Shown here in pieces: positions 1 to 32,402 of a DNA stretch of 32,402 nt; the first letter of the stretch is position 1, and each line of letters starts with the position of its first letter. Source of the stretch: a virus. The stretch spans positions 1 through 32,402 of the IMG/VR virus record IMGVR_UViG_3300045988_151696. One strand, 5' to 3'. The position numbers and the translations under genes are program-made. The notes below the pieces were generated by a model. It did not search any database. It saw only the letters and a list, made by a program, of their open reading frames with translations, and was not told where the DNA came from.

Positions 1-119
1 ACTTTTTTTATTGACAAACCAATTTATTTTTTATATAATGGAGATACGAAAATGCTAAACGAGGGAGTAAATGATATGACAGCAGCAATCTATGCAATAA
101 ATGACATTTTAAAAGAGCC
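1..119. repeat. Left copy of a terminal direct repeat, identical to 32284..32402. Both copies are cut off by the window edges, so the true length may be greater.
   Basis: Exact identity was read directly. The period of 32,283 bp equals the unique genome length. The repeat contains a promoter and the first 23 codons of ORF 52..240. Confidence 0.95.
11..39 (+). promoter_or_regulatory. Consensus sigma-A type promoter TTGACA(11-16)-N17-TATAAT(34-39) with an A/T-rich upstream tract.
   Basis: Perfect -35 and -10 hexamers with a 17-nt spacer. The start codon at 52 lies only about 6 nt after the predicted transcription start, so the mRNA is short-leadered or leaderless. Confidence 0.5.
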
Positions 120-240
120 CCCCAAGGACTACACGGAAAAAGAAGCACGCAAAGTTCTTAGAGAATGTGGAATATTGACAACGAAAAATTCCATTAGAGT
201 AGAATACAAAGAACTCATAATTGACACCAAAAAGAAGTGA
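52..240 (+). CDS. Small 62-aa hypothetical protein, first gene of a two-gene cassette. It may be the partner, immunity or regulator of the downstream ART-like protein.
   Basis: The ORF follows the consensus promoter. Its TGA stop overlaps the downstream ATG (gTGATGa), which indicates translational coupling. Both GGAG at 40-43 and the promoter sit upstream. Confidence 0.55.
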   Translation: MLNEGVNDMTAAIYAINDILKEPPKDYTEKEARKVLRECGILTTKNSIRVEYKELIIDTKKK

Positions 241-875
241 TGAACAACATATCTTTTGATTCACAAATATACCAAAGACCAGCACAGTTTGTTTTGGGTT
301 TTCATGGTTGCGATAAAAAAGTAGCAGAAAAAGTTCTTTTATCAAACGATGGACATTTAACAAGCAGCGAAAATGGTTATGATTGGTTAGGTAATGGCAT
401 CTATTTTTGGCTAAACGATCCTCAAAGAGCACTCGAATGGGCTGAACAAGAAAAGAAACGAAAGCCCAATAAAATAACGACACCTTTTGTTATTGGGGCA
501 ATTATTGATTTAGGTTTATGCCTTAATTTCTGTGAAAGACAAGCCGTTGATTTAGTAAAAAAAAGTTATGAAGAATTAAAAAATGCTCTCAAAGCAGATG
601 GAAAAGAGATAAACAGCATTTATTCAAATACCATGCCGGATGCCGGAGGGTTTAATTTAGTACGAAAGTTAGATTATGCCGTTATACTAAATTTACATAG
701 GATGATGAAAGAAAAAGGACAAATGTTCGATACTGTATACGGATATTTCCAAGAAGGACAAGACGCATTTGAAGGAGCAGGAATAAAAGAAAAATCTCAT
801 ATTCAAATATGCGTACACAACCCCAATTGCATTAAAGGTTACTTTCTACCACGTAAAATTCCTAATAATATATAA
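240..875 (+). CDS. PARP/DarT-like ADP-ribosyltransferase-fold protein of the H-Y-E clade, 212 aa.
   Basis: FHGCD followed by AEKVLLSNDG matches the PARP beta1-alphaA signature H-G-S...A-G-I-L-S-Q-G. About 30 aa later, GYDWLGNGIYFW matches the PARP donor-loop and beta3 motif G-Y-M-F-G-K-G-I-Y-F-A. A possible beta5 lies at SHIQICV or YFQEG. GC content is about 36%, against about 50% in core genes. The track start at 237 is GTG; ATG at 240 is used here. Confidence 0.5.
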   Translation: MNNISFDSQIYQRPAQFVLGFHGCDKKVAEKVLLSNDGHLTSSENGYDWLGNGIYFWLNDPQRALEWAEQEKKRKPNKITTPFVIGAIIDLGLCLNFCERQAVDLVKKSYEELKNALKADGKEINSIYSNTMPDAGGFNLVRKLDYAVILNLHRMMKEKGQMFDTVYGYFQEGQDAFEGAGIKEKSHIQICVHNPNCIKGYFLPRKIPNNI

Positions 876-898
876 AGGCGGGGATATAATCCCCGCCT
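876..898. terminator. Bidirectional intrinsic terminator hairpin aggcgggga-tataa-tccccgcct.
   Basis: A perfect 9-bp GC-rich stem with a 5-nt loop lies between the convergent genes 240..875 (+) and 931..1770 (-). A/T tracts flank it. Confidence 0.6.
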
Positions 899-930
899 TA
901 AAACATATCCCCAAAATGGTAAGCTTCACT

Positions 931-1770
931 TCACCTCAAAAACTCCGCCGCCGCGTACCCGATGTACTCCTTGCCGCCATACTCAACGATAACGCAATCC
1001 CAAGTATACCCGTCAGTCTTACAGATAGCCTCCTGCACGATCTGTACGGTACGCCCTCGCGGTATGTAGAAAAATCTCTTGCCGTTCTGCGTCTGCGCCT
1101 TGCTTCTCAACGCAAGCGCGTCGGTCGTAACTTTGGTTCGAACCTCACCGCTGATAACGCCGAATTTAATCACTTTCTTCTTTTCCTCCTTTGGCAACTG
1201 TTTGAACTTCAATCCTCTCGCGTTCTTTATCGTCGTAAACTTCGGGTCTACAAAGAACAGCCTTTCAGGCTTATCCGTCCCGTGCGTTGTGGTTACAACC
1301 CAACTTCCCAGTGTGTTCTTCTGCCAGCCGCTGCCTTTCAGACCGCCCTTGCCCGCGGACATGTGAACATGGTTGCCGCTTGCGTGAGAAGTGCCTTCGT
1401 GCCCGATAAGTTCGCCGCGCTTGTATTTGCGTCCGACGTAAATACCGTTTCTGCCGAAATCGGAATTGTTCATGTGCACAAATTTTATCGTGCATATATC
1501 CCTTGTTCCGTCGGCAAAATCCACCTCGGAAGTAGAAACCAGCCACGCGCCGTTTGCGTGATTGTTGCCGGTTACGTCGCCCGCGATTTTGACAACTTCC
1601 ATTTCATCGCATGGGCAATAAAACGGTTCTCTGCCGGTGTCTTTACCCGCGATGTCTATCGGATAATCCGCAGGTGTTCCGTGTGAACTGATATAGTGCG
1701 AAGTTTTTCCGTCGTAAGTCTGGGTTATTCCCATAATCTTCATCGGAAACGTCAGATAGTTTTTGCTCAT
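931..1770 (-). CDS. Endolysin, a zinc metallopeptidase of the M23/LAS type with a C-terminal wall-binding region.
   Basis: GHEGTSHASGNHVHMS resembles the M23 G-x-x-G-x-S-x-G-x-H-x-H motif. PIDIAGKDTGREPFY..EVVKIAGD resembles the first M23 motif. It is the last gene of the late operon, immediately after the holins. ATG at 1770 has RBS GAAGGAGG; the track start at 1776 is TTG. Confidence 0.7.
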   Translation of the reverse strand: MSKNYLTFPMKIMGITQTYDGKTSHYISSHGTPADYPIDIAGKDTGREPFYCPCDEMEVVKIAGDVTGNNHANGAWLVSTSEVDFADGTRDICTIKFVHMNNSDFGRNGIYVGRKYKRGELIGHEGTSHASGNHVHMSAGKGGLKGSGWQKNTLGSWVVTTTHGTDKPERLFFVDPKFTTIKNARGLKFKQLPKEEKKKVIKFGVISGEVRTKVTTDALALRSKAQTQNGKRFFYIPRGRTVQIVQEAICKTDGYTWDCVIVEYGGKEYIGYAAAEFLR

Positions 1771-1772
1771 TT

Positions 1773-2033
1773 TCAATCCTCCTTCGGCTTTTCATAAGTC
1801 ATGGCTCTGTCGCTGTCCGTCATACCCGCGGTCGTCGGGTCTGTAACCACTCCGAGAACCGCAAGCACCGCAAACACGGCGTTTATAACCGCCGCTATTT
1901 GCTGATTGAGCACAACAAAGTCCCACGCGTAGCCGAAAAGGCTTGCCACGGTCTGAACGACAAGCAGCAATGCGGGCACTATCGCGAGCCAAAACGTCTT
2001 GTTTTTTAGTCTTACTTTCCAGTTAATTTTCAT
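1773..2033 (-). CDS. Holin (phage_holin_1 / phiLC3-LL-H-like), 86 aa.
   Basis: N-terminus is MKINWKVRLKNKTFWLAIVPALLL. There are two hydrophobic helices and a charged C-terminus. It sits directly upstream of the endolysin. Confidence 0.65.
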   Translation of the reverse strand: MKINWKVRLKNKTFWLAIVPALLLVVQTVASLFGYAWDFVVLNQQIAAVINAVFAVLAVLGVVTDPTTAGMTDSDRAMTYEKPKED

Positions 2034-2301: not shown

Positions 2302-4581
2302 TTATATACCTTGATTTCCTAAATAATTGGCAGCTGTAATCAGCCAATTCACCAAAATTTCTTCATTTGCTTTGTAGACATCTGCGGTAAATTCCGCATC
2401 GTTCGGAAAACCGTTAAACCCCTCAAGAAGCATACCTGCGAAATTGTTGTCAGTCGCCCAATCTCTTAATAACCCAATACCCGCCGAATTATTTAAAAAA
2501 CCTAAAATTGTATTGGGTTGATTGAGTTCATAATCAACGTTAAAGTTTGCGCTTATCGATGATAGTTGATATGCGACCGCATCAAGCAGTCTGTTGTAAT
2601 AAGCATCTGTACTTTGGCAAACTCCATAATAGTTGATGTAACTATATTGCGCGACAGAAGACGAACCGTTTGTGTGAAAATCTATAACGAGTGAAGCATC
2701 TGTGTTTCCTTGCAACAATGTTCGAACTATTTGAGTTTCAGGCTGGTCGAAAGGTGCCGCGCCGCCGTACTGTTCCGATGTCGGGTCGGCATTCAACTGC
2801 CAGTGCGAATCATAGTTCCTATTAAGATTTACTCCGTTCCCGTTTTTATAAGTTAAATGGTCAAAGCCATAGGTGTTCAGCACGGGAATAATCATCAATT
2901 CCACATGATTTCTCAAATATTCAAGTACAGAATGCTGTCTCCATCTATTTAATAAATTATCGACAAAACAATACAGACCGTATATATTTGATTTCTCAAA
3001 ACCGTGCTGTCCTGCGACAATGATTATTTTCGGGATAGCGGTTTTTTGATTTGAAAGTTTTGCAGGTTTAAAATCGTATAGATATATGTTCTGTTCGTCC
3101 GACGCTTGACCGAGCGTTGTTTCCGTAACATAGCCGCTATGCCCCGTGATAAGTGTTTTCCACGCCGCAATGAAAGTCGCGTATGTAGTATTTTTGGTGA
3201 AAGTGGTCGCATATTGTGAATTGACACCTTTGTAATAAGCAGACGGAATCACTCCCCAATTAACCGACCTGCGGTATGGGCTTGTTTGTTCCTTATCCGC
3301 TTTTGTATCGTCGTGTTTTAACGTATATGCTAACTCGCTTGGAACAACAGTGTCCCCGTCCACATATGTTTTTGTTATTGCATTTGTTCTTGCTTCGTCT
3401 GCCGTTTTACCTTCGACAACCATAGGTTCAATGACTTTAAGTTTTTCTGCGGTGCTTACGTCAGTAACCACTGTGGCGTTGATATGTATCATCATCTCCA
3501 CAACGTCAGTGGGTACAAAAATGGTAACCTGATTATTTTTATTGTAAACTATTTCAGGGTATTTATTGTACACTAATATGGTTCCATCGGACTTTTTTGC
3601 GTTTATACGCTGAATTAGCGGAGCATTTGGATAAGTCGTTCTTTCTCCATTGGCTTTAATGCTGAACGCATAATATTTGCCATAGGTAACAGGTATCCAG
3701 CCAGTAACAAAGTTTGCAGCAGTAGAGGAAACAATGCCTTCTACATTGTCTTGTAATCTACTTGAAAATGATACTTCGCTAACTTTCATAAGGTTGTAAT
3801 TTCCACCCGATACGGTTTTAACATCACAGCAAGCGTTAATAACTTTTTCGAGTTGCTCCGCGCCCGCTTTGTTAGCAAGCGCAGCCTTAACGGCTTTGTT
3901 CTGTACAGGATTTTCCGATGTCGCGGACAATTCCGCGTCTACGGCGGTCTTGTTCGCACCTGCTTCTACCCCGTCGAGTTTGTCTTTCAACTCCGTTGTG
4001 AAGTCGTTTGTCGAAAGCCCCTTGCCTGCGACCTTATCAACCTTGTTTTTAAAGTTTGAGTAAACGTTTCCTTCGACCTCTGTGATTTTTGCGTCTATTC
4101 TATCCAGCTCCTGAGGTACAGTTTCTTCAAGAAGAGACTTTGCGCTATCTGTGTAGTCGTTTGTCGAAAGTCCCTTTCCCGTAACCTTGTCTACCTTGTT
4201 TGCGATAATGTCGAGGATGTTTCGGTAGACATCAGGTGTGAATGCTTCGGCGGAAACATCGAGGATCGAACTTATACACGGAATCTGTGCGGGAGTAGAG
4301 GTTTTTAGCGTGTTTTCGGTGCTATCGCCCGCAAAAAAACCAACAAAAAGCATTTTTGCTTGTATTACCGCAGGCAGCGGGCAGGAAGTTCCCGTAAACG
4401 GGACATCTATATATGTATACTCGCCGCCTTTAATCCATACAAGACGAGCGGTTTTTGCGGAGATGTTTGTCCATTCATCGTCAAACGTGACGGTAAGCGT
4501 GTCGCTATCATTACCGCAGATAAGAGATTCTGTTGATGTAGTCTGCGCAACTCGTTTACTTACAGTAATCTTAAATTCCAT
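2302..4581 (-). CDS. Tail fibre / receptor-binding protein with tandem GKGLSTND(F/Y)T fibre repeats and a C-terminal M14 zinc-carboxypeptidase-like domain. It is likely a virion-associated peptidoglycan peptidase.
   Basis: The repeats are VDKVTGKGLSTNDYT and VDKVAGKGLSTNDFT. The C-terminal motifs are AGQHGFE (HxxE zinc ligands), IPVLNTYGFDH (NPDG-like), GVNLNRNY (GVDLNRNF-like) and LVIDFHTNG (third zinc His). RBS is AAGGAG. Confidence 0.65.
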   Translation of the reverse strand: MEFKITVSKRVAQTTSTESLICGNDSDTLTVTFDDEWTNISAKTARLVWIKGGEYTYIDVPFTGTSCPLPAVIQAKMLFVGFFAGDSTENTLKTSTPAQIPCISSILDVSAEAFTPDVYRNILDIIANKVDKVTGKGLSTNDYTDSAKSLLEETVPQELDRIDAKITEVEGNVYSNFKNKVDKVAGKGLSTNDFTTELKDKLDGVEAGANKTAVDAELSATSENPVQNKAVKAALANKAGAEQLEKVINACCDVKTVSGGNYNLMKVSEVSFSSRLQDNVEGIVSSTAANFVTGWIPVTYGKYYAFSIKANGERTTYPNAPLIQRINAKKSDGTILVYNKYPEIVYNKNNQVTIFVPTDVVEMMIHINATVVTDVSTAEKLKVIEPMVVEGKTADEARTNAITKTYVDGDTVVPSELAYTLKHDDTKADKEQTSPYRRSVNWGVIPSAYYKGVNSQYATTFTKNTTYATFIAAWKTLITGHSGYVTETTLGQASDEQNIYLYDFKPAKLSNQKTAIPKIIIVAGQHGFEKSNIYGLYCFVDNLLNRWRQHSVLEYLRNHVELMIIPVLNTYGFDHLTYKNGNGVNLNRNYDSHWQLNADPTSEQYGGAAPFDQPETQIVRTLLQGNTDASLVIDFHTNGSSSVAQYSYINYYGVCQSTDAYYNRLLDAVAYQLSSISANFNVDYELNQPNTILGFLNNSAGIGLLRDWATDNNFAGMLLEGFNGFPNDAEFTADVYKANEEILVNWLITAANYLGNQGI

Positions 4582-5641: not shown

Positions 5642-6306
5642 GGGGTTAAGGTTCCTTCTTTCCACTTAATCGTTGTAGGCGCGCCGGAAATCCTGATGAC
5701 AGATTCTCCGCGAGGAATATATATTCCTGTTTGGAGGTTTACCCCTCCTTTTGCGGGGGAAGTATAGCTTTGAGAAGACCCTTTGAAGATTGTAAAGTAA
5801 TTACTCGCATCACATACGATCTCCGTTGCCGGTCTTCCATTGTTCGAAATGGTTATTTCTGCATTTCCATCACTCGGCGGAACAACGAGTTGTGTTCGAT
5901 ATTCGCTCCACAGGTACGGTTCCATTTTTCCCGTGATGACAACCGTCGAATAGTACGGCGATTCCGTCTTGTCGGTTACAGAAATTCTTCCCGACATTGT
6001 TTTTCGAGGAAAATCCGGAAAGGTAATCAAGGTTAAAAAACCGTCAAGGTTGTTTACCATATCCTCGATAATCAGCCGACGTGCATTGCGTGTCGCGAAA
6101 GACGAAATCAGCGTTATGCTCAATGTTCGCATCTCGTATCGAGGTGTGTTGTCGTACACGTCTGTGTAATCAATTTCCCCATCTCCATAAGCAATGCTAA
6201 GGTAATTGGTCTTCTGCTTCGGTTCGGACAAGGACCACTTATTAAGTGTGAAATGTCCGTCTGCCGCCGTGTCATATTCGCCGAGAATAAACCCTCTTTT
6301 AGTCAT
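5638..6306 (-). CDS. Distal tail protein (Dit, phage tail family protein).
   Basis: The gene lies immediately downstream of the tape measure, with an ATGA overlap on the TMP stop. It is 222 aa. Confidence 0.55.
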   Translation of the reverse strand: MTKRGFILGEYDTAADGHFTLNKWSLSEPKQKTNYLSIAYGDGEIDYTDVYDNTPRYEMRTLSITLISSFATRNARRLIIEDMVNNLDGFLTLITFPDFPRKTMSGRISVTDKTESPYYSTVVITGKMEPYLWSEYRTQLVVPPSDGNAEITISNNGRPATEIVCDASNYFTIFKGSSQSYTSPAKGGVNLQTGIYIPRGESVIRISGAPTTIKWKEGTLTP

Positions 6307-23372: not shown

Positions 23373-24359
23373 TCACGCTCCGATCTGCTTCGCAACCGCC
23401 GAAAGTGCAGCGGAAAACTTGCCCGCCAATTCGGGATTCTTTTCTCTGACCTTACCTATTGTTTCTTTTATTTTCGCCGCAGTCTCTTGCAGGTTTTCAA
23501 AAAGCGCCTTGAAGCGCATCGCGTCAGCGTCGTTCAGTTCCGCTTTCTTTCTCAACGCTTCCGCTTCGTTTCGCGCTTCCGTAACCTTTCTTTCCGCCTC
23601 CGCTTTTGCGGCTTTCAAAGTCTCGATCTCCTGTTTTCTTTTCTCTTCCGCTGCCGCCGCATTCTTCCGCACTTCCGCTTCCGCTTCGCTGCGTAGTCTG
23701 TCAAGCATTTCTTTCGGTATCTTCGGATTCTTTTTCAGTTCCTTTATCTTCGCTTCAAGGTCTGCCGTCGCCTTTACGTTCGCGTCGGCTTTTGCTGCCG
23801 CTTCGGCTATTTCATCATTCTTCTTCTGCAAAAGTTCTTCAAGCTCCGCAACGCGTTCTTCCGCGTCCGATACCTTTGCTTCCGCCGCAGCCGCTTCAAG
23901 GGCTTCTTTTTCCGCTTCTTCGGCGCGTTTCAAAGCCTCGTCACGCTCCTTGATAACCCTGTCAAGTTCCCTCACGGAAATATTTTCAACGTCGTGTTCT
24001 TCCGCGAACTCTTCGCGCTCCTCTTCGGGCACCGCAAGCAGCCGCAAAGCCTTGGTATAACTCAAATTCCCAAACGTTTGGGAATTTGAAACAGCCGCGC
24101 CGAACAGCGTAAACTGCTTGTCGCCGTACTCCTCAAAAAGTTTCATAAAGTTGTTTGCCGAACTCTGCGAAAATTCAACCTTTTCGCGGAGCCACGTTCC
24201 CCACTCGCCGTGGGGTAAAAGGTCTTTTGCCTCTGCAAGGCGCCGCCCTATCTCGACCGCATACCCGAGCATTACGGACTGAGCCGAGGACACAAGACTT
24301 TTTATCTCGTCTGTCACAACCTCGATGCTGCGCCCGCTCTTTTCAATAATGTTATCCAT
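23373..24359 (-). CDS. DUF3102-like N-terminal domain protein with a long Ala/Glu/Lys coiled coil.
   Basis: The motif MLGYAVEIGRRLAEAKDLLPHGEWGTWLREKVEFSQSSANNFMKL is followed by a coiled-coil region of about 200 aa. Confidence 0.5.
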   Translation of the reverse strand: MDNIIEKSGRSIEVVTDEIKSLVSSAQSVMLGYAVEIGRRLAEAKDLLPHGEWGTWLREKVEFSQSSANNFMKLFEEYGDKQFTLFGAAVSNSQTFGNLSYTKALRLLAVPEEEREEFAEEHDVENISVRELDRVIKERDEALKRAEEAEKEALEAAAAEAKVSDAEERVAELEELLQKKNDEIAEAAAKADANVKATADLEAKIKELKKNPKIPKEMLDRLRSEAEAEVRKNAAAAEEKRKQEIETLKAAKAEAERKVTEARNEAEALRKKAELNDADAMRFKALFENLQETAAKIKETIGKVREKNPELAGKFSAALSAVAKQIGA

Positions 24360-26037
24360 TTGCTGCCACCTTCCGCTTTCTTATTTTCTTTATGTTCTGT
24401 TTTGCAAATTCAAGCCATTGTTCTTCAAACGCTCTCACTTCCGGAGTTCTTGTGCAGTTCCCTTTACCTCGGTTTTGCTTCACGGTGCAGTTTTTTTCGT
24501 CAAGTTCGAGCGTGTAAAACGGCTTGTCCGGCTCAGATACTTTGCGGACAAAGAATATATCCGTCTCACCGCTTGCGACACTCTCCGCATAAGTCGCCAC
24601 GCAATGATGAAGGCATTTTCCCTCATTTTTCAGTTCGTCAAGCGAAGCAGCGGGGCGTATCATCAAAACGCCGTTGCTGCTTACAAGTGTTGAAAGAATT
24701 TTCGCACGTTCCGAAATGCGTTTACTTCTTTCCGCATCTTTTTCACGCTCTTTTTCTTTTTCCCGCCTTCTGTCTTCCTTAACAAGTCGGTCATGTTCTT
24801 TTTTCAGATCCTTCGGGAAAAAGGTGTCCTTATCTACGGAGATATTCAGTTTGTCGCACAGTTTATAGTAGTCCCGAAGCATTCCCGCATAACTTCCGAG
24901 TGTTTCTTTGCTCTTTTCCTTGCTTTGCAGTTTTCGGAGATAATTTACTACGGTTTTTACGTTTGTGCCGTATTTGCTTATTTCGATAAGTTCACGGTCG
25001 AAAAAGCCGAGCTGTTCCGCGTCATCAAACGTCAGCCCGAACGGTTTTAATTTTTGATAGCGCAGTAAGTCGGGCGAATCGTACTCACGTTTAATGACTT
25101 CCGCATATTCGGGTCTTGACAAGCCGAGCATCTTGTGCGGCTTTGTTTGTTTGAAGTCAATGCCTGTAACGCGCGACGAATATCTGAAATCCGTGTTATT
25201 GTACGAATAAGATGCGGGAGAAGCATTTCTCTCGAAAAATGACGACATAAGGATTGACGCGCCTGTATCTATAAGCCCCTCCACAGTCTTATGCCTCTGC
25301 CAAAGTTTCATATATGTGACGGGGAACGCATCGTCTTTCGCGTTGTTCAAATATTTATTCAGCCGGCAATTCTCAAAAGGCGTTCCGTTCAGTATTTTTT
25401 TGTCCGGAACAACAGCCGAAGAAAAGCCTTTGCCGATGCAGTCCTCGCTCCTTGACCGCTTTTCCCAATATCCCAACGGTATTACACGGGAATAATACAT
25501 ACCTCTTTTTTTATAACCGACAAGGCGCGTGCATTTCTTTTTCTCGAAGACATAAGCTTCATAGGGGGTATATTCATTGAACGCTATACCGTCTTTATTT
25601 ACAGATCTGCTGCACAGCCAAAAAATAAGGGCAAGACAGTTCTTAACGATTCGGAGCGTCAGTATTTTTTCATTGTTGATATAATAATTCGGGTAAGCTC
25701 CAAAATCCGAAACGTGAATAAAATCAACTTTCTTACCGCATTCCGGACATATTGCCGCACTTCCCGAATATATCGCCTCACTGCCAACCAAACAGCCGAA
25801 ATTACTGCGCGAATACCTATGGCAGCCGTCTGTCTCAACGCGGTCAAGCAAAAATGTTTCCCCGCAGGCAGAACAGGTGCATTTGCACATCTTTTCACCG
25901 ATGCCCGACAGCGGATTTATGTACACTCCTGCGCGGTACACAACCGCATCGGCGGTCAGAAACTCCTTTGCGATTATTTTTTTCTCTTTTTCTGTCGGTT
26001 CTGACGGCAGAAGTTTTTCGAAATTCAACTCTTCCAC
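24352..26037 (-). CDS. PcfJ-like protein.
   Basis: The C-terminal segment LMIRPAASLDELKNEGKCLHHCVATY...DIFFVR....PFYTLE....V.QNRGKGN matches the conserved PcfJ domain. An N-terminal Cys cluster is present. The start codon is GTG with RBS AAGAGG. Confidence 0.6.
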   Translation of the reverse strand: MEELNFEKLLPSEPTEKEKKIIAKEFLTADAVVYRAGVYINPLSGIGEKMCKCTCSACGETFLLDRVETDGCHRYSRSNFGCLVGSEAIYSGSAAICPECGKKVDFIHVSDFGAYPNYYINNEKILTLRIVKNCLALIFWLCSRSVNKDGIAFNEYTPYEAYVFEKKKCTRLVGYKKRGMYYSRVIPLGYWEKRSRSEDCIGKGFSSAVVPDKKILNGTPFENCRLNKYLNNAKDDAFPVTYMKLWQRHKTVEGLIDTGASILMSSFFERNASPASYSYNNTDFRYSSRVTGIDFKQTKPHKMLGLSRPEYAEVIKREYDSPDLLRYQKLKPFGLTFDDAEQLGFFDRELIEISKYGTNVKTVVNYLRKLQSKEKSKETLGSYAGMLRDYYKLCDKLNISVDKDTFFPKDLKKEHDRLVKEDRRREKEKEREKDAERSKRISERAKILSTLVSSNGVLMIRPAASLDELKNEGKCLHHCVATYAESVASGETDIFFVRKVSEPDKPFYTLELDEKNCTVKQNRGKGNCTRTPEVRAFEEQWLEFAKQNIKKIRKRKVAANG

Positions 26038-29149: not shown

Positions 29150-30745
29150 ATGAAAAAAGAAATAAAGGAAGAACCAAAAAAGAAAGCGGTCGTTTATGCC
29201 CGATATTCAAGTCACCGGCAGGGAGAACAGAGCATCGAGGGGCAGCTTGCGGAAGCGTATAAGTATGCTGCGGCACACGGTATCAAGATTATACACGAAT
29301 ATATCGACCGTGCAATGACGGGGCGAAATGATAATCGCGAACAATTTCAAAAAATGCTTCGAGATACGGCAAAAAAACAGTTTGAAACGATTATACTTTG
29401 GAAAATCGACCGTTTCGGACGCAATAGGGAAGAAATAGCCTTCAATAAGTACCGTTGTAAGAAAAACGGCGTCAAAGTTGTTTACGTCGCGGAAAGCATT
29501 CCCGACAGCCCCGAGGGTGTCATCCTCGAAAGTGTGCTTGAAGGCATGGCGGAATATTACAGCCTGCAATTATCGCAAAATATTCGACGCGGACAGCGGG
29601 CAAGCGCGGAGAAATGTCAATGCACGGGCGGCAACCGCCCGCTCGGGTATCGAACCGACCCGAAAACCAAGAAATTTGTTATTGACGAAGAGACTGCGCC
29701 GACCGTCAAGATGATATTCGAGATGTACGCGAACGGAATACCTCTCGCCGATATAATAAGAACGGTGAACAATAAGGGGTTGCGAACGCTTCGGGGAAAT
29801 AAATTTAACAAAAACAGTTTTAAGCGGCTTTTGAAGAACGAGAAATATATAGGCGTATACAAATACAAAGACGATATACTTGTTGAGGGCGGAATACCCG
29901 CCATTATTGATAAAGAAACATTCGAGAGGGTGCAAGAAATGTTAAAAAAGAATCAGACGGCAAGATCCGCAAAAGGAAAGAAAGCAGATTTTTTACTTAC
30001 CGATAAAATTTTTTGCGGACGCTGCGGAGAACCGATGATAGGGGAGAGCGGCGTCGGCAAGACCGGCAAGGTGTACTATTACTACACTTGCACCGACAGA
30101 AAAAACAAAAAACAGGCTTGCAAAAAGAAGCCCGTTCCAAAAGATAAGATTGAAAAACTCGTAATTAACAAAATCGCGGAGATACTGCACAATGAAGATC
30201 TCCTCGATATGATTATTGATAAAGTATATGCCGTGTACCGCGAGGAGCACAACAACGACGATGAGCGAATCATGCTCAACAAAAAACTTGCTGAGATACA
30301 TCTTGCGCAGGAAAACATCCTGAAAGCGATCGAGCAGGGAATGATCAGCCCGTTATTCAAGGACAGAACAGCCGAGTTGACAGCGCAGCAGTCAGAAATA
30401 GAAAGCGAACTCGCGTCCATCGAAGCGCAAGAAAAAATACAGTTGACAAAAGAGCATATACGTTTCTTCCTTGAAGATCTCGCTTCAAAGGATATTGACG
30501 ATACGGACGTACAAAAGAAACTTATAGATACGTTTCTCAATGCCGTTTTTGTCTATGACGAAAGTGTTACATTTGCATTCAATTACTCCAATAACGGAGA
30601 AAAAGTCACCCTCTCCGAAGTTGATAATATCAACGGTTCAGGTGACTTTTTCGAGTGCGGTATCAATGGTGGAGAATTGCGCCCGTCACTCGAACTCTTT
30701 ATAGTCTACAAGAATGTATTCTTAACCACGTCCGCATTGCGATGA
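29150..30745 (+). CDS. int: Large serine recombinase (phage integrase), 531 aa.
   Basis: The N-terminal resolvase catalytic domain VVYARYSSHRQ..SIEGQ has a Ser nucleophile. A recombinase domain, a Cys-rich zinc-ribbon (CGRCGEP...CTDRKNKKQAC) and a C-terminal coiled coil follow. ATG at 29150 has RBS GTAGGAG. Confidence 0.9.
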   Translation: MKKEIKEEPKKKAVVYARYSSHRQGEQSIEGQLAEAYKYAAAHGIKIIHEYIDRAMTGRNDNREQFQKMLRDTAKKQFETIILWKIDRFGRNREEIAFNKYRCKKNGVKVVYVAESIPDSPEGVILESVLEGMAEYYSLQLSQNIRRGQRASAEKCQCTGGNRPLGYRTDPKTKKFVIDEETAPTVKMIFEMYANGIPLADIIRTVNNKGLRTLRGNKFNKNSFKRLLKNEKYIGVYKYKDDILVEGGIPAIIDKETFERVQEMLKKNQTARSAKGKKADFLLTDKIFCGRCGEPMIGESGVGKTGKVYYYYTCTDRKNKKQACKKKPVPKDKIEKLVINKIAEILHNEDLLDMIIDKVYAVYREEHNNDDERIMLNKKLAEIHLAQENILKAIEQGMISPLFKDRTAELTAQQSEIESELASIEAQEKIQLTKEHIRFFLEDLASKDIDDTDVQKKLIDTFLNAVFVYDESVTFAFNYSNNGEKVTLSEVDNINGSGDFFECGINGGELRPSLELFIVYKNVFLTTSALR

Positions 30746-32006: not shown

Positions 32007-32283
32007 CATCTTTACTTCAAGTATTCCGCCGAAACAAAATCTCCCATATCTTTTTTTTCGTTGAATATAGACGCTCTTATAAAATTTCTATATTTTTCAT
32101 TTATTACTCTTCCTGCATAGTCTACACATATACATATATATAGAAATATATTTAATAATAGCATTAAATGCTCTTTGTTTTTACTCAAAGATTATTTCTA
32201 TTAGAAACGGTTCCACTCAACAACAATGTTGATGTCTTACCCGTATAACCAGCCTTAAAAAACATTGAAATCTATTTTTACTA

Positions 32284-32402
32284 ACTTTTTTTATTGACAA
32301 ACCAATTTATTTTTTATATAATGGAGATACGAAAATGCTAAACGAGGGAGTAAATGATATGACAGCAGCAATCTATGCAATAAATGACATTTTAAAAGAG
32401 CC
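32284..32402. repeat. Right copy of the terminal direct repeat, identical to 1..119. It contains a second copy of the TTGACA-N17-TATAAT promoter and the start of ORF 52..240.
   Basis: Exact identity was read directly. Confidence 0.95.

Follow-up and report, generated by a model that had tools for sequence, protein, structure and literature searches.

The stretch of viral DNA analyzed here, referred to as the window (32,402 nucleotides; IMG/VR record IMGVR_UViG_3300045988_151696), opens with a cassette of two genes on its plus strand, in which a gene for a small protein of 62 amino acids (aa) is followed by a gene for a 211-aa protein with the predicted fold of an ADP-ribosyltransferase (ART). 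The cassette is preceded by a perfect TTGACA-N17-TATAAT promoter, as the original prediction had read it from the letters. The promoter agreed with the consensus at 12 of 12 positions and was the sole promoter-like site found in a scan of positions 1 to 1200. The stop codon of the small gene overlaps the start of the ART gene, again as predicted, and this overlap most likely couples the translation of the two genes. The predicted enzyme length of 212 aa, however, is reached only from an alternative GTG start, while the ATG start gives 211 aa and agrees with the gene call of an identical database protein (P0001). The results presented below show that this pair of genes is widespread, and it looks like a large undescribed family of toxin-antitoxin (TA) or defense modules.

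The 211-aa protein had no match among the Pfam and NCBIfam models, including those for PARP (PF00644), DarT (PF14487), and RES, and its only PHROG was phrog_14664, which is of unknown function. It did match the PADLOC hidden Markov model (HMM) of CmdT, PD-T4-9_A (E 1.6e-6, residues 18-74). We assembled 42 homologues from many phyla, with identities of 41-57%; 41 of them matched the same HMM (best E 7e-8), and 7 matched the Pfam PARP model PF00644 (best E 5.7e-6). An AlphaFold2 (AF2) model of the protein, with a predicted local distance difference test (pLDDT) score of 82, gave the highest fold-comparison score with NatT (8.5), followed by an insecticidal ART (8.0), ParT and PARP4 (both 7.6), MbcT (7.5), diphtheria-toxin homologues (7.3-7.5), PARP1 and PARP15 (both 7.1), and exotoxin A (6.7), with DarT (4.5-4.9) and Tpt1 (4.0-5.4) at the low end. 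On the basis of this model, the protein is predicted to adopt the ART fold, with its NAD+ cleft in a split beta-sheet. In the PDB, sequence searches that started from the single protein or from profiles A1 and A4 returned chance matches only, BFVD contained no close structure, and no signal peptide or secretion domain was found in the ART family. The kinship with PARP that had been proposed for this protein was borne out by the fold scores (7.1-7.6 for PARP and diphtheria-toxin homologues) and by the profile, in homologues but not in the protein itself, whereas the DarT and Tpt1 profiles gave no match and the fold resemblance to DarT was low.

The relationship to CmdT could be followed to individual residues. 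We found the cmdTAC locus of Escherichia coli N2250 via the published Y41A mutagenic primer and built the CmdT family alignment from there. The primer places the mutated residue at the second Tyr of QGYYFW, and the Y41A substitution abolishes both defense and toxicity of CmdT (PMC11618068). When the ART family was aligned with the CmdT family by hhalign, the match had a probability of 96.7% and an E value of 3.3e-10 over 52 columns, and it paired VLGFHGCD...YDWLGNGIYFWLNDPQRALEWA of the ART family with HIGFHNCL...KQWLTQGYYFWTDDPYWAHQWN of CmdT; a greedier alignment was collinear up to residue 145. The alignment puts H22 and Y55 on the His and the catalytic Tyr of CmdT. These two residues, which lie in the FHGCD and GNGIYFW motifs on which the PARP-like assignment had been founded, were invariant across all 42 homologues and are secure candidates for active-site residues. 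By sequence comparison, the ART family is a distant sister family of CmdT within the HY-[EDQ] clade. Of the H-Y-E signature in the original prediction, the His and the Tyr stood; E172 is invariant as well, but the HY-[EDQ] triad is probably completed by Q189 and not by a Glu. In a collinear second segment that is not significant alone (FQEG...SHIQICV against FVDER...TRQQMCV), Q189 falls on Q166, the sole C-terminal invariant of CmdT.

Several further features of these proteins were observed. Two cysteines, C24 and C191 (positions 309-311 and 810-812), are conserved in the ART family and also in CmdT, as C13 and C168. Each follows a catalytic-site residue at a distance of two positions (H-x-C and Q-x-C), the strands concerned are expected to be adjacent, and the two cysteines could form a redox-sensitive or structural pair beside the NAD+ pocket. 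Insertions of 100-140 residues were seen in two homologues (P0253 and P0321), at the same site past the LDCAVIE helix and ahead of the FDSVRG strand, which marks this region as a variable point that tolerates inserts. A third homologue of 692 aa (P0365) reads as an N-terminal ART domain followed by an apparent RHS/YD-repeat region and a further C-terminal domain. In the T7-like cyanophage S-B28 of Synechococcus (MK016662.1; L147, 3968-4321), a 117-aa protein encoded between hli and psbA (DUF6321 in UniProt) shares with the ART no more than its N-terminal H...GxYFW half, at 47% identity over 58 residues, and looks like a truncated half-domain relative. The cmdTAC locus of E. coli N2250 (L148; NZ_CP189474.1, 2405-3618) is flanked by DinI-like/replication genes on one side and by the portal gene on the other; the product of its middle gene is only 77 aa long, yet the Mets et al. 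preprint cites CmdA residues 120-121.

The 62-aa protein was identical to a database protein that is present on 23 contigs (P0123), and it had no match in Pfam, NCBIfam, PHROG, PADLOC, or PDB. Its AF2 model (pLDDT 84) predicts three helices. Four small proteins encoded upstream of ARTs in different contexts aligned at 25-32% identity; the conserved core of the family spans about 38 residues (SSKEEARKFLVEAGILTKNGKLTKAYR), and its members are basic, with a median isoelectric point (pI) of 9.8. Neither a helix-turn-helix (HTH) nor a DUF2384 match was found in 32 partners. The partner HMM was iterated from four seed proteins, and the locus set consisted of 135 loci from many phyla with a full-length ART, taken from a one-genome-per-species scan (at least 484 confirmed ART matches), from IMG/VR (51 matches), and from loci fetched by identity. 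A homologous small gene was present upstream of the ART gene in 129 of the 135 loci (approximately 96%), immediately upstream and on the same strand in 127 and at a distance of 75-83 nucleotides (nt) in 2. One locus had it downstream, and the five loci that lacked it were mostly those with the most divergent ARTs. Among 69 nonredundant pairs, the small gene overlapped the ART start in 42 and ended 0-12 nt from it in 24, gaps that are approximate, as the ART starts were set heuristically. No third gene family recurred around 78 representative loci, and the conserved unit is exactly two genes.

The co-occurrence of the two genes outside this phage, which had been put forward as a check, was therefore confirmed by the great majority of loci. 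A chance open reading frame was rejected as an explanation of the 62-aa gene, which is kept in those 129 loci and is called by RefSeq on plasmids. Natural fusion of the partner and the ART was also rejected, as the N-terminal extension of the one candidate (P0320) looks like a miscalled start. The partner diverged faster than the enzyme, with identities of 15-41% compared with 41-57% for the ART. Antitoxins usually diverge faster than toxins. The number and position of the small gene varied in three loci: a second copy lay about 1 kb downstream of the ART in one (L039, 4300-4485), an extra copy lay directly downstream of the ART in another (L026, 5641-5826), and the sole copy overlapped the ART stop from the downstream side in the third (L126, 2034-2231).

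The ART family is large. When the representatives of clusters formed at 50% identity were searched with its profile, 3,189 matched with E <= 1e-3, of which 1,844 reached E <= 1e-10, and nearly all of the best 150 matches listed were stand-alone proteins of 180-215 aa. The matches in the species-genome scan spanned at least eight phyla, with hosts in the Oscillospiraceae/Acutalibacteraceae, Segatella, Prevotella, Chitinophaga, Chryseobacterium, Paenibacillus, Pectobacterium, and Yersinia, as well as in the Verrucomicrobiota, Planctomycetota, and Acidobacteriota. The ART was carried by 67 plasmids, for example, an 8.5-kb mobilizable MOBQ plasmid of Acinetobacter and conjugative plasmids of the Pseudomonas syringae group and of rhizobia, and the small gene was also called in both plasmids that we inspected. 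Cultured-phage records yielded only two N-terminal partial matches. On chromosomes, the neighboring genes varied and often resembled those of mobile elements or defense loci (helicase/ResIII, AAA_14-DUF4143, DUF4365, and subtilase). This distribution over prophage ends, plasmids, and variable chromosomal sites is typical of TA and defense modules. The plasmid-borne matches were labeled "hypothetical protein" wherever they were annotated, and the ART family has no dedicated model in Pfam, NCBIfam, or PADLOC; thus, current defense and TA finders miss it.

The absence of a known pairing for such a small partner without a macrodomain, which had been stated in the original prediction, was consistent with the library searches described above and with the literature. 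No description of the pair was found in literature searches on CmdT homologues, on ART TA pairs, on the RefSeq accessions of the plasmid members, and on the PHROG identifier; a 2015 census of ARTs (PMC6126934), which lies outside this comparison, might name the ART domain. The viral HY-[EDQ] ART families listed by Iyer et al. 2022 are N4-like, PART, ORF28, and p0068-like, together with a few viral ART TA pairs, and none of those pairs has a partner that resembles the small protein described here.

Positions 1-119 of the window are identical to its last 119 positions, so the window represents an entire phage genome, 32,283 bp long and circularly permuted, and the cassette promoter, which falls inside this repeat, appears a second time at 32294-32322 (the features are collected in Table 1). 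The carrier of the cassette is a temperate gut phage. The lysis, tail, and head genes occupy the minus strand from 931 to approximately 17,400, opposite to the cassette as predicted. On the circular map, the serine recombinase gene is followed by about 1.6 kb of small open reading frames, including one for a ribbon-helix-helix (RHH) protein, then by the cassette on the plus strand, and then by the endolysin, holin, and tail genes on the minus strand. In integrated copies of the phage on three metagenomic contigs, the phage homology begins at window position 30667, which locates attP there, and the cassette lies approximately 1.7 kb from the prophage end. Homologous cassettes occupied the same slot in two unrelated temperate phages; one has holin, amidase, cassette, and then host cotJ genes, and the other has lysozyme, an SH3 protein, cassette, and then a tyrosine integrase. 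The moron slot between the endolysin and the attP/int region, in which the cassette had been placed, is thus real and recurrent.

Table 1. Positions of the cassette and of related features in the window
Feature	Position	Strand	Remarks
Sigma-70-type promoter	11..39	+	TTGACA 11-16, 17-nt spacer, TATAAT 34-39
Ribosome-binding site, GGAG	41..44	+	Precedes the small gene's ATG by 7 nt
Small partner gene, 62 aa	52..240	+	ATG 52, TGA 238-240; proposed antitoxin/neutralizing partner
TGATG stop/start overlap	238..242	+	TGA 238-240, ATG 240-242
ADP-ribosyltransferase gene, 211 aa	240..875	+	Alternative GTG start 237; proposed toxin/effector
H22 codon (FHGCD)	303..305	+	Invariant His, first ART strand; aligns with CmdT H11 (HxC)
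Y55 codon (GNGIYFW)	402..404	+	Invariant Tyr; aligns with the CmdT Tyr whose Ala substitution abolishes defense and toxicity
E172 codon (FQEG)	753..755	+	Invariant here, not in CmdT; loop before the Q-x-C-V strand; candidate catalytic acid
Q189 codon (SHIQICV)	804..806	+	Invariant; collinear with invariant CmdT Q166 (TRQQMCV)
GC-rich hairpin, 11-bp stem, 3-nt loop	875..899	-	Between the convergent ART and endolysin genes
Endolysin-like gene	931..1776	-	PHROG endolysin matches; marks the end of the lysis module
Holin gene	1773-2033	-	Phage_holin_1 domain; adjoins the endolysin-like gene
Large serine recombinase (integrase) gene	29150..30745	+	attP near 30667, at the 3' end of the gene
Terminal direct repeat, 119 bp	32284..32402		Identical to 1-119

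The composition of the cassette is foreign, which we count in favor of the moron interpretation given below. The GC content of positions 1-930 is 34.0% (genome mean, 44.6%) and falls within the lowest 2.4% for windows of this length (930 bp); the GC content at third codon positions is 23.6% in the ART gene and 40-61% in the structural genes. The direction of the difference was as predicted, although the contrast was smaller than the predicted one (approximately 36% against approximately 50%). At the distal end of the cassette, the predicted GC-rich hairpin was found, but its assignment as the terminator of the cassette was not upheld. Since the run of T residues lies on the minus-strand side, it is on this strand that the hairpin scored as a terminator. 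The plus strand has only TT after the hairpin, which mainly terminates the convergent lysis operon.

A few other features of the phage and its hosts were recorded. The host flank of the integrated copies carries a heavy-metal P-type ATPase gene in two contigs (L009 and L013) and a Cas12a-Cas4-Cas1-Cas2 locus in the third (L010). The latter contig also holds, at 5709-6078, an inverted copy of the RHH-gene region (window 31117-30747) with 85% identity, perhaps the remnant of a related element. The endolysin-like protein (931-1776, minus strand) has no Pfam match and is connected to endolysins only through PHROG (E 3e-11), and it seems to be a divergent lysin. According to precomputed Pfam calls, a 759-aa protein of the tail region (2302-4581, minus strand) contains Peptidase_M14 (zinc carboxypeptidase), an unusual enzymatic domain for a tail fiber or receptor-binding protein, and the early region (24352-26037, minus strand, and its neighbors) encodes a PcfJ-like protein (561 aa) and a DUF3102 protein.

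We consider it somewhat probable that the cassette is a self-contained, two-gene TA or abortive-infection module of type II-like organization, carried as a prophage moron. It has the generic architecture of such modules: it is bicistronic, a small upstream gene is coupled to a larger enzyme gene, and its distribution is mobile and patchy. As we picture its action, the consensus promoter gives rise to a single bicistronic mRNA, as is evident from the sequence, and the overlapping genes on this mRNA would be translated so that partner and enzyme are made in a fixed ratio. The enzyme would be an NAD+-dependent ART of the HY-[EDQ] clade that uses H22, Y55, and Q189 and/or E172. CmdT ADP-ribosylates the N6 of adenine in GA sites of mRNA (single-stranded RNA) and thereby stops translation (Mets et al. 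preprint); by analogy, the free enzyme may modify RNA or, less likely, another nucleic acid and arrest the cell. Since the small protein is the sole conserved partner, we infer that it binds and neutralizes the enzyme, in a relation of toxin and immunity, and it may also aid folding or repress the promoter. If the supply or stability of the partner fell, for instance through host shut-off by a superinfecting phage or through loss of the plasmid or prophage, the enzyme would be released and would abort the infection or kill the segregant.

Several observations weigh against this interpretation. CmdT alone is not toxic in E. coli and needs CmdA for its folding (PMC11618068), so the small partner could be a foldase and not an inhibitor. 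The significant homology to CmdT is limited to approximately 50 N-terminal residues, and the PADLOC match covers profile positions 5-60 of 191. The top structural matches of the enzyme are RES toxins, which consume NAD+ and do not transfer ADP-ribose. The fold of the partner could not be assigned to any known fold. Coevolution of the partner core with the ART was not detected in a mirror-tree comparison (r = 0.06, with 103 of 999 permutations at least as high), a null result that probably reflects the shortness and saturation of the 38-residue core. Finally, a search for inverted repeats in positions 32100-32402, a range that includes the second copy of the promoter, showed no operator-like palindrome over the promoter.

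The structural matches point to the alternative that the pair is a two-gene TA system in which the enzyme, in the way of the RES toxins MbcT and NatT, degrades NAD+ as an NADase or an NAD+ phosphorylase and kills by depletion of NAD+. Besides the RES-like best folds, a Gln in place of a Glu at the probable catalytic position fits such an activity, and ART clades are known to include NADases and phosphorylases (Iyer et al. 2022). However, the H...G-x-Y-F-W signature belongs to the HY clade, as in CmdT and PARP, and differs from the R-E-S/Y-N pattern of RES domains, CmdT shares the invariant Gln and is nevertheless a true transferase that acts on RNA, and none of the 32 partners resembled an Xre/DUF2384-type antitoxin. 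Depletion of NAD+ is therefore an improbable mode of killing in our estimate, even less probable than a role of the enzyme in anti-defense or host takeover, which we already regard as unlikely. In the latter case, the enzyme would ADP-ribosylate a host protein, for instance a component of a defense system, in the manner of AcrIF11 on Cas8f, and the small protein would be an Aca-like autoregulator of the promoter and no inhibitor. AcrIF11 is itself an ART carried by phages and plasmids (PMC12421852), the cassette promoter is a perfect consensus, which is common among those acr promoters that require repression, and both the basic character of the small proteins and weak fold and HMM hints of winged-helix or MarR-like regulators are in line with a regulatory partner. 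Against this, the nearest sequence relative of the enzyme is the toxin CmdT and no Acr, the gene order is opposite to that of acr-aca, with the small gene first, and chromosomes of many phyla frequently carry the pair in surroundings that are neither phage-like nor plasmid-like. The tight translational coupling, moreover, suggests a stoichiometric complex and not a regulator.

The requirement of CmdT for CmdA shows that partners can be positive factors, and it would also suit a nontoxic ART that modifies a host protein or small molecule in lysogenic conversion, with the small protein as an obligate folding or specificity subunit. Phage-encoded ARTs are known as fitness factors in gut bacteria (PMC11699363), and the strong constitutive promoter would be suitable for expression in the lysogen, but the patchy, mobile-linked spread over unrelated phyla and habitats speaks against a single conserved target pathway in the host, a secretion signal is lacking, and occurrence on tiny plasmids suits addiction or defense better; of the explanations considered, we find this one the least likely. 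It is also possible, although we advance it only tentatively, that the approximately 3,200 clusters constitute an unrecognized family of CmdT-like nucleic-acid ARTs under the control of a new kind of mini-partner, which would not reverse the modification, would be independent of a chaperone, and would lack an HTH. Such a partner could directly sense phage infection or could fold or activate the enzyme, and the target or base specificity of the enzyme could be new.

The known ART toxins of defense and TA systems (DarT, CmdT, ParT, and RES) are few, and each has revealed new target chemistry. The family described here is far more common than that of CmdT (2,168 clusters against 121 by the same word-indexed search, or approximately 18-fold), and its members reside in gut Clostridia, in Segatella/Prevotella, and on plasmids of Pseudomonas syringae, rhizobia, and Acinetobacter. 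Knowledge of the target of the enzyme and of its control by a protein of 50-70 residues would extend the catalogue of prophage immunity and addiction systems by a common module, and the enzyme could supply a compact NAD-dependent tool for modifying nucleic acids. Its abundance and lack of annotation make the family worth experimental follow-up.

Compared with the known systems, the cassette is closest to CmdTAC (PD-T4-9; Vassallo 2022/2024, Mets 2024), a toxin-antitoxin-chaperone system. Both have a stand-alone ART of approximately 190-210 aa from the HY-[EDQ] clade, with the motifs h-G-[FY]-H-x-C, W-L-x-x-G-x-Y-F-W-x-[DN]-x-P, and Q-x-C-V in common, both are carried by prophages (a P2-like one for CmdTAC of E. 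coli N2250), and in both the ART forms an operon with a small nonenzymatic partner. However, the partner gene is upstream of the ART here, whereas CmdA is downstream of CmdT; the alignment of the small partner (A3) with the CmdA-like protein by hhalign reached a probability of only 0.2%; and a SecB-like chaperone was found neither in the gene list of the window (Pfam calls) nor around the 78 representative loci. E172, invariant here, is absent from CmdT. With a profile match confined to the N terminus, a reversed gene order, an unrelated partner, and a missing chaperone, membership in CmdTAC was rejected.

The RES-Xre systems (ParST, MbcTA, and NatRT) share the two-gene design, with the small gene or antitoxin upstream of an ART-fold enzyme, and occur on mobile elements and phages as well. 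Their toxins, however, have an active site derived from R-E-S and degrade NAD+ or modify Prs, whereas the signature here is H-Y-Q/E, and their antitoxins consist of Xre-HTH and DUF2384, in contrast to a partner of approximately 50-70 aa that has no such domain. We rejected this membership, as there was no RES Pfam match and no HTH or DUF2384 in the 32 partners, and only the fold is alike. An anti-phage TA system with an ART toxin acting on nucleic acid, as proposed here, would resemble DarTG, but DarG undoes the modification as a hydrolase of the macrodomain or NADAR kind, and the partner of the cassette is too small for an enzyme. Assignment to DarT was rejected because PF14487 did not match and the 62-aa partner, without a Pfam or NCBIfam match, contains no macrodomain or NADAR. 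Tpt1/KptA was rejected too, since it was neither a profile match nor the best fold match. PARP (PF00644), diphtheria toxin, and exotoxin A resemble the enzyme in the H...Y spacing of 33 residues, in G-x-G-I-Y-F, and in the [FY]-D-S-V strand. Unlike these proteins, the enzyme has an inserted helical region of approximately 70 residues that separates its third strand from the FDSV strand, probably has a Gln and not a Glu at the collinear catalytic position, and has no regulatory or translocation domains. The cassette also resembles AcrIF11-aca, in which a small enzyme with the ART fold is likewise found on phages and plasmids and shares its operon with a small helical protein. Overall, the cassette would act like the known ART TA systems yet belongs to none of CmdTAC, DarTG, and RES-Xre, and its partner is a new family.

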